A stretch of 59,280 nucleotides of DNA, counting the filler, from Dugesia japonica (Eukaryota): NCBI GenBank assembly GCA_001938525.1. It is 6 parts of 6 records of this genome, joined end to end, with 100 filler letters (N's around TTAATTAATTAA, not from the genome) between each part and the next. Parts side by side here need not be neighbours in the genome. Positions count along the whole stretch, not along the records: positions 39,439 to 48,578 come from MQRL01642017.1; 5 more parts are not named here. The stretch is one strand, 5' to 3'. Below the pieces are notes generated by a model. The model did not search any database and was not told the origin of the DNA. It saw nothing but the letters and a program-made list of their open reading frames with translations. Shown here piece after piece: positions 46,687 through 47,834 of this stretch; within the stretch, counting starts at the first letter, position 1; the number at the start of each line of letters is the position of its first letter. Position numbers and translations under genes: made by a program.

Positions 46687-47834
46687 AATATGGAATTAGC
46701 CGTTCAATCTAGGAGAAGTTTCTTACAAAACAATGCAAAAATCATACTCTACGAAAAGAACCGAAACATAAATAATCCCTTCGATTACAGTTGGCGCGAT
46801 GTAGCTCTTGTATCTTTGAATATTGACCACGATCCTATATGCCCTTTATGCTACGACAAACCCATAATGCCGAGAATAGCTCAGTGTGGACACTAATTTT
46901 GTTTCTCCTGTATTACCCAATACTTTGACATAACAACTTCAAGCATCGTCCCTTGCCCTTTATGCAGAACTTATAAAATTCACCAGAGAAATCTTATACG
47001 TACCAAAATCTGTCGTCAACAGGTTCCAATAATTGGGCAGTTTGTACCTCTCACTTTGATGATTAAAATGCCACAGAACAACAATCTTAGATTTGCTCAC
47101 TAAACTCCTTTCATGTATCAAATCGACACCCCAGATAGAAGCGACCCCACTAGTGAATTACTCAATGTATGCACACAACGTGACAAATCAATGATGATAT
47201 CCGTACTATTAGTTACGGACCCCTTCCTCATAAACAAAAGAGTAGACTGATAAGCTATTAAAAGGAGAACATTTTTATTTTTCAGACACAATAAAAATCT
47301 TGAAAAAATTAGAATTTAACCAAGAATTCACTGTAGCCACCAGAGATGGAGATAGATATAACCTGATAGTCCATAATACTGAATTGAAAAATTGTTCACA
47401 CGTTTATCAAACAGCCAAATACCCACGAACATTTTAAATCATAAGCAAACAGATGAATTTCTAAAATCCGCACCAGAAGATATTCCTTAGGTGGTTATAT
47501 TGAAAGAATATCCAACATAGTGATTGATAAAGCCTTAAACCCCAATACATGCTTCTCATCCCTGCCTGATGGCCTAATGATCCGTATACTCGACATACGA
47601 GTGGACACTGTGTCTACCACGAAAAGACTCGACGCCCTTAGCTATCTTCACTTACATGCTAAGCAGGTGAAAGAAAAAATTATAGAGGAAAACAAAAGAT
47701 TGCAAACGATTGCGGAAGAAAGTAGAACTTGTATGGGTCAACCAGCCCGGATTTTGTCCCGAATACATAACCCAAAAGATATCTTCTCTAGAGAACCCTC
47801 CAACTCCCCTTCAAGTGTCTACCCCAAACATTAA
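46687..47834 (+). pseudogene. RNF10/Mag2-like C3HC4 RING E3 ligase, divergent and decayed
   Basis: SFLQNNAKIIL...YSWRDV..CPLCYDKPIMPRIAQCGH*FCFSCITQYF..CPLC...IGQFVPLTLMIK, later HVYQ and FSSLPDGLMIRILDI...KRLDALSYL. These correspond to RNF10 FLQAN, W..V, CPIC..P...IT.CGH.FC..CI..Y, G..I...LMKR, YFYQ and R.RYLSHLP. Confidence 0.7.

Follow-up and report, generated by a model that had tools for sequence, protein, structure and literature searches.

We have found a decayed gene of RNF10/Mag2 ancestry behind the pol gene of a Gypsy retroelement in the window, by which we mean the whole 59,280-nt stretch of Dugesia japonica DNA that was analysed, an AT-rich stretch in which assembly gaps are numerous and decayed Gypsy fragments occur. 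Genes of this kind lie behind pol in two distant elements, have a REX4-like neighbour and are trimmed to the folded core of RNF10, and the RNF10-like gene is very probably cargo of env-bearing Gypsy retroelements, carried behind pol.

The window gene (46690..47948, plus strand) is compact and intronless. It starts at the same place as in its intact compact relatives, and a frameshift-aware alignment spans 46714-47936 collinearly and without an intron; an earlier note on this DNA had ended the gene at 47834, which is too early, the gene running on to about 47945. The C3HC4 RING (46840..46965, plus strand; Pfam zf-C3HC4, E 3.9e-9) has Arg at the linchpin and keeps 8/8 zinc ligands. The stop that had been read inside this RING is indeed there, at 46894, where it falls on a non-ligand position, and to it we can add two further stops (47101 and ~47832) and three frameshifts (~47245, ~47423 and ~47476). 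When the window frame, with X at its stops, was searched against 1.84 billion proteins, 1062 matched at E<=0.001; the best of them, P0004 (386 aa; E 3.5e-28, residues 5-172), aligns to the frame from residue 1 and without a gap over 165 residues at 35% identity. The RNF10 C-terminal block occurs in 104 of the best 150 of these 1062 matches, and named matches to the family profile include RNF10 and MAG2. On this sequence evidence the window gene is RNF10/Mag2-derived, as had been proposed.

It had also been proposed that the similarity extends past the RING, and this stands for the C-terminal block when it is approached through the compact relatives. The block, a strand, an SHLP-type turn and a long helix (47484..47720, plus strand), is picked out at E 2.4e-4 when a profile built from four intact compact proteins is run over the window in 1584 six-frame chunks, the next unrelated chunk being at 0.18. 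In the frameshift-aware alignment the C-terminal half reaches 88.2, and none of 80 control stretches exceeds 38.9; for the middle piece the margin is slight, 29.2 with controls reaching 27.9. What does not stand is a strong match when host-type RNF10 is used directly: a profile built from 36 such proteins did not find the block in the window (E 0.17), and the N-terminal piece with its RING masked reaches only 4.1 bits against host-type RNF10, in a comparison in which the intact compact proteins score 12.9-40.3 bits and the controls at most 0.4 (16 listed of 17 non-RNF10 proteins). Because the match to host-type RNF10 is weak outside the RING, the RNF10 assignment leans on the intact relatives. 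NCBIfam returned only rad18, far under its cut-off, and an atlas search with the first 68 residues returned only generic RINGs, under 0.9. We rejected identity as a generic TRIM-type RING, the top PDB matches covering the RING only. A word-indexed search for longer relatives found none among 201 candidates, which is weak evidence, and a word search of sequencing runs, uninformative either way, found part of the sequence in 9 of 24 rows, none of them with half of the words and no RNA run among the rows listed.

The carrier of the gene is a Gypsy-type element whose pol (39560..43250, plus strand) has the PR-RT-RH-IN order of Ty3/Gypsy, with a protease (39653-39922), a reverse transcriptase (40715-41191), an RNase H region identified from the translation only, and an integrase. 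Upstream of the RNF10-like gene and on the same strand there follow one another the protease, reverse transcriptase and integrase, an in-frame extension (43251..43724) that starts with a signal-like hydrophobic stretch at about 43284-43331, the REX4-like ORF and an acidic reading frame. Downstream, a candidate 3' end (47949..48140, plus strand) has a polyadenylation-like hexamer at 48098-48103 and an A-rich strand skew that reaches ~48140, and is likely the 3' end of the carrier. The carrier pol has six stops and one frameshift, and the claim that the RNF10-like gene has decayed like the neighbouring pol is borne out, six lesions in 1.25 kb not differing significantly from seven in 3.6 kb (p 0.11). 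The GC content of the gene is 0.38 and that of pol 0.30. The carrier copy lacks its 5' part, where there is an assembly gap.

A sister copy of the same family (12906..19300, minus strand), 73-84% identical to the carrier over pol, supplies the upstream genes. It has a gag zinc knuckle (18990-19037; E 4.8e-4, just under Pfam's cut-off), then a decayed gB-type, Monjiviricetes-like env (17063-18150; PF24664, E 5e-17 and 3.2e-12) and then pol, a gag-env-pol layout in which env between gag and pol is seen in this copy only. The sister copy is broken off behind the integrase and the cargo region is therefore missing there. With both element copies truncated, a search of the window found no LTR pair around the cargo and a polypurine-tract search no 12-purine tract, so that of the linkage to pol and LTR raised by the earlier note, the linkage to pol is found in two elements and LTR boundaries are not found in the window. 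We note that between the two integrases (42285-43340 and 12971-14026) 121 of 187 differences are at third codon positions, and that single changes comprise 93 synonymous and 39 non-synonymous ones; since the differences are mostly at third positions, the copies represent two once-active subfamilies and not one recent duplication. At about 12906-13090 (minus strand) the integrase frame of the sister copy likewise continues into a signal-like hydrophobic stretch, and abutting it is a further integrase end (12484-12930, minus strand), which also has a signal-like tail and comes from another member of the family or of a related one. Elsewhere in the window, translations reveal decayed Gypsy-type pol fragments of other families (29901-31462, 33292-35219, 38170-39150 and 10854-12450 / 54015-55677). 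The segment 31873-32599 recurs, 98.9% identical, on the other side of an assembly gap at 32650-33376, likely an assembly artefact, and inverted dispersed non-coding repeats, 67-84% identical, pair 36886-37568 with 58253-58931 and 49520-50854 with 56523-57608, one arm additionally matching 48680-48833.

An intact homologue stands behind a related integrase in an independent element, and the compact proteins group together, so that the status of the gene as cargo, which the earlier note took to be apparent, is upheld. The compact and intact protein P0092 (445 aa) was found on a metagenome contig, L001 (one locus from 51 candidate stretches), where the order is integrase end, intact RNF10-like ORF and a 717-aa REX4-like ORF. 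The integrase end on L001 is 52% identical to the window integrase over 204 aa. Since a related integrase and both cargo genes occur on L001 and in the window, the cargo is shared, with the order of its two genes swapped. Linkage to pol is thus seen for two of the five compact proteins (the window copy and P0092), the other three (P0004, P0005 and P0175) coming without genomic context. Immediately 5' of the start codon of the L001 RNF10-like ORF is an AG, and an AG-ending pyrimidine run lies just 5' of the start codon both there and in the window gene. The L001 integrase frame (2-1804) extends ~350 aa past a signal-like hydrophobic stretch and has a transmembrane segment at its end, so that the integrase is fused to a membrane protein following it, in a family with an env already present upstream of pol; the post-integrase extensions of L001 and the window do not match each other (phmmer, best E 0.6). 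A search of viral_contigs found no relative of the compact alignment, of the REX4-like protein or of the L001 integrase.

The REX4-like neighbour is an accessory ORF (44153..45954, plus strand) whose DEDDh domain, at about 45170-45600, is REX4/ISG20-like and is broken by a frameshift near 45430; an acidic reading frame with no family match (45955..46419, plus strand) continues it past a stop. The ORF is homologous to ORF3 of L001 (E 3e-6; E 1.3e-4 window-wide), residues 195-365 of which have a DEDDh fold (feature score 0.94; TM 0.80-0.85 to REX4/RNase_T models). The sole PDB match of the window piece is ISG20, at E 1.2, and Pfam does not recognise the domain in either element. On L001 the ORF (3723-5876, 717 aa, no Pfam match) has an N-terminal domain without a known family and a conserved C-terminal domain. 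Eight metagenomic relatives are 59-100% identical over the part searched, seven of them full length. At what we take, from the consensus, to be the position of the first D-x-E pair, the acidic pair is missing in 8/8 rows of the alignment (A4), and in the window ORF the D is kept and the E is not. The REX4-like protein thus appears to lack the first catalytic acidic pair and to be catalytically dead, and because the pair is missing in all eight relatives it more probably binds RNA than degrades it. The earlier assignment of this ORF holds as to the DEDDh fold; with the first acidic pair apparently missing, the ORF adds no evidence for a role at the ribosome.

In a tree of 25 rows, five compact and 20 hand-picked host-type, a single branch (94/91; present in 92% of bootstrap trees) separates the five compact proteins from the rest, and the same branch (SH-aLRT 90) appears in a quick tree of 60 rows, 55 of them host-type; both trees are unrooted and have long branches, and P0001 fills 48% of the columns. 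A tree had been suggested in the earlier note as a check, and these trees put the compact proteins together while placing neither the root nor the donor. The grouping of the compact proteins could be an effect of long branches, and no host RNF10 in the trees is known to come from the likely donor lineage. Sequence features agree with the grouping, in comparisons with a host-type set that was gathered with the same queries and is biased towards compact proteins. A one-residue insertion after the RING is present in 5/5 compact proteins and in 8 of 119 measurable host-type proteins (of 168), and the linchpin, the residue after the last ligand (position as defined in PMC7667886), is Arg or Lys in 5/5 compact and 2 of 146 measurable host-type proteins. 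Arg is reported to be the most effective linchpin, and a Tyr-to-Arg change raised the activity of XIAP (PMC12326332). The eight zinc ligands are intact in all five (the window copy having X at its stop). The four intact proteins have open frames of 319-445 aa, are 27-35% identical with invariant ligands, and to some degree all keep the FYQ and SH turns and the long helix, within a C-terminal block that is very diverged. A length of 450 aa or less is rare among host-type proteins (8 of 168; median 666). The compact proteins begin at the pre-RING strand, without the N-terminal arm, whose LLNF-type motif is found in 106 of 182 host-type rows and no compact one, and the RING starts by residue 60 in all of them and in 16 of 157 host-type proteins.

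The tails differ as well. Human RNF10 is reported to need a RACK1-binding FPx(L/F) motif for full uS3/uS5 ubiquitination (bioRxiv 10.64898/2026.08.26.747346). Behind the long helix the strict motif is found in none of the four intact compact tails, three of which have FTPM at the site, and it is absent in the window too, where position 47835 has FP but the fourth residue is not hydrophobic. Among 131 host-type tails 35 have the strict motif and 43 a looser pattern, with 10.7 expected, and given this rarity the apparent loss of the RACK1 motif in the compact proteins is suggestive only. A model of P0092 (61 rows; pLDDT 69.7, pTM 0.61) is confident at about 40-210 (RING) and 240-370 (C-terminal block). 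Searches of BFVD and the PDB with the model gave no fold match at E<=0.001 and generic RINGs only; the best hit in a VIA fold search (Z 6.6, the FIP200 Claw domain, model residues 114-322) is within the chance range, and in the PDB we found no solved structure for the RNF10 folded core beyond generic RINGs.

How might such a gene serve a retroelement? It is quite possible, if a little short of probable, that the window gene is a decayed accessory RNF10 whose intact counterparts are active E3 ligases still tagging 40S proteins. A fuller account, which we put forward tentatively, is that an old env-bearing lineage of animal retroelements captured RNF10 once, that the RACK1 motif was cut and the linchpin activated, and that the product ubiquitinates the 40S subunit beside a catalytically dead REX4/ISG20-like RNA binder. 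The capture would have been a single old one from a spliced host mRNA, and long-term selection would have retained the gene; the AG-ending pyrimidine runs would fit a separate spliced message for it. According to PMC11604940, the host enzyme RNF10 frees stalled 40S subunits and mono-ubiquitinates uS3, for which it needs its RING, and PMC12008924 reports that its overexpression alone degrades 40S. The compact protein is predicted to dock on 40S by means of its retained core, in the absence of the RACK1 motif that recruits and restrains the host enzyme, to ubiquitinate uS3/uS5 more readily than the host enzyme does, and so to clear or degrade stalled 40S and tilt translation in cells where the element is active. 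The 40S as substrate is predicted, and is the weak step of this explanation; if 40S were degraded, translation of the element itself could suffer. The idea, already in the earlier note, that the cargo manipulates ribosome quality control may still hold in this conditional form, weakened by the loss of the RACK1 motif. Nothing in the present results favours the further idea that the RNF10-like gene helps to translate a long polyprotein.

A close rival, which we consider rather unlikely, is that the cargo is an active E3 whose core directs the degradation of some other substrate, for example a host factor in silencing or antiviral defence. Such retargeting would accord with the loss of the RACK1 motif and the N-terminal arm, with the strong divergence of the C-terminal block, and with a cationic linchpin, which is typical of strongly catalytic, chain-forming RINGs; Burro elements, moreover, are described as carrying other ubiquitin and apoptosis domains (PMC6431247). 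Yet a generic RING scaffold needs less than the whole RNF10-specific core, which all four intact proteins keep to some degree.

It is improbable that the protein is instead a decoy that binds 40S or the E2, blocks host RNF10 and shields ribosomes stalling on element RNA. Truncated copies of host genes are often dominant negatives, and the neighbouring REX4-like protein is apparently a pseudo-enzyme; all ligands are nevertheless kept and an activating linchpin gained in 5/5 compact proteins, the opposite of a dead RING. Less probable still is a neutral passenger, a captured host cDNA riding along without benefit. Open frames of this length at such low identity with invariant ligands, the persistence of both cargo genes despite shuffled gene order, and the largely full-length relatives of the REX4-like ORF all speak against it, even if the window copy is dead and extra ORFs of rotifer elements are reported to show no clear departure from neutrality (PMC5408684). 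That the gene is a host gene or processed pseudogene which happens to lie beside the element, or is the only RNF10 of the genome and contains assembly errors, is very improbable: no bounding LTR was found and its base composition is unlike that of pol, but the company of integrase, RNF10 and REX4 recurs on L001, the gene groups with the compact proteins and not with host-type RNF10, its lesions are as frequent as those of pol, and host-type proteins are so seldom this short.

If the fuller account that we offer tentatively, in which the ligase acts on 40S beside a dead REX4-like protein, is true, this would be the first ribosome quality-control ligase encoded by a mobile element, and action of the intact proteins on 40S would mean that retroelements and their hosts contend over ribosome quality control as well. 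Should they not act on 40S, the compact proteins still show where the folded core lies, as natural minimal RNF10s of 320-445 aa, and they offer a direct test of the roles of the RACK1 motif and of the non-cationic linchpin in the host enzyme. It is already known that LTR elements carry cargo and capture host genes, that there are RING ligases of viruses and that viruses interfere with ribosome quality control; capture of a ribosome-surveillance ligase by an LTR element we have not found in print. Searches on RNF10 with retrotransposon or virus, accessory ubiquitin ligases, Mag2 with Ty1, GYPSM1 and GAG-ENV-POL returned no mobile-element RNF10 at the level of abstracts, outside subscription papers, Repbase and the labels of the Burro figures.

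Several known systems resemble parts of what we describe. RNF10 in animals and Mag2 in yeast share with the compact proteins the C3HC4 RING, the flanking strands, the FYQ and SH(L)P blocks and the long C-terminal helix; they are RING E3 ligases that mono-ubiquitinate uS3 and uS5 on stalled 40S, an activity that for the compact proteins is predicted from sequence. Unlike RNF10/Mag2, the compact proteins are short (319-445 aa against a median of 666), lack the N-terminal arm and the strict RACK1 motif, have an Arg/Lys linchpin and the one-residue insertion after the RING, and are encoded by an intronless gene behind a retroelement pol. The gag-env-pol order has been described for the planarian Burro/GYPSM1 giant Gypsy elements (PMC6431247), and GAG-ENV-POL errantiviruses with a gB-type env for flatworms, nematodes and bryozoans (PMC13524379, whose supplement 1 has nine flatworm rows, eight of them without LTR coordinates, and gives six S. 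mediterranea elements without LTRs). Both resemble the family in the window in having an env between gag and pol that matches mononegavirus-type fusion proteins (here in the sister copy) and in having captured host regulatory domains; the Burro cargo domains named in PMC6431247 are AIR1, Smc, MATH, BIR, ankyrin, BCL2, Ubi/SUMO, dUTPase and midasin-like, with neither RNF10 nor REX4 among them. The polyprotein of Burro proper is about 5000 aa long and includes MATH, BCL2, BIR and ankyrin domains, whereas here only about 850 bp separate gag knuckle and env and the cargo genes are separate ORFs 3' of pol. None of those four domains was matched by Pfam in the 27 frames scanned, in copies that are decayed and were compared with Burro by description only; we rejected the name Burro for the carrier. 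The Juno and Vesta LTR retrotransposons of bdelloid rotifers likewise have an enzyme-derived accessory ORF behind pol, their ORF3s being described as DEDDy exonucleases or GDSL proteins expressed as spliced separate units (PMC5408684); their exonucleases are of the DEDDy type with catalytic residues intact, whereas the window ORF is REX4/ISG20-like, apparently inactive, and paired with an E3 ligase. Finally, the herpesvirus deubiquitinase BPLF1 of EBV is also a ubiquitin enzyme of a virus that acts on ribosome quality control, as PMC10721647 reports, but it is a deconjugase of a DNA virus with demonstrated activity, whereas here a host ligase, its activity predicted, has been captured by a retroelement.
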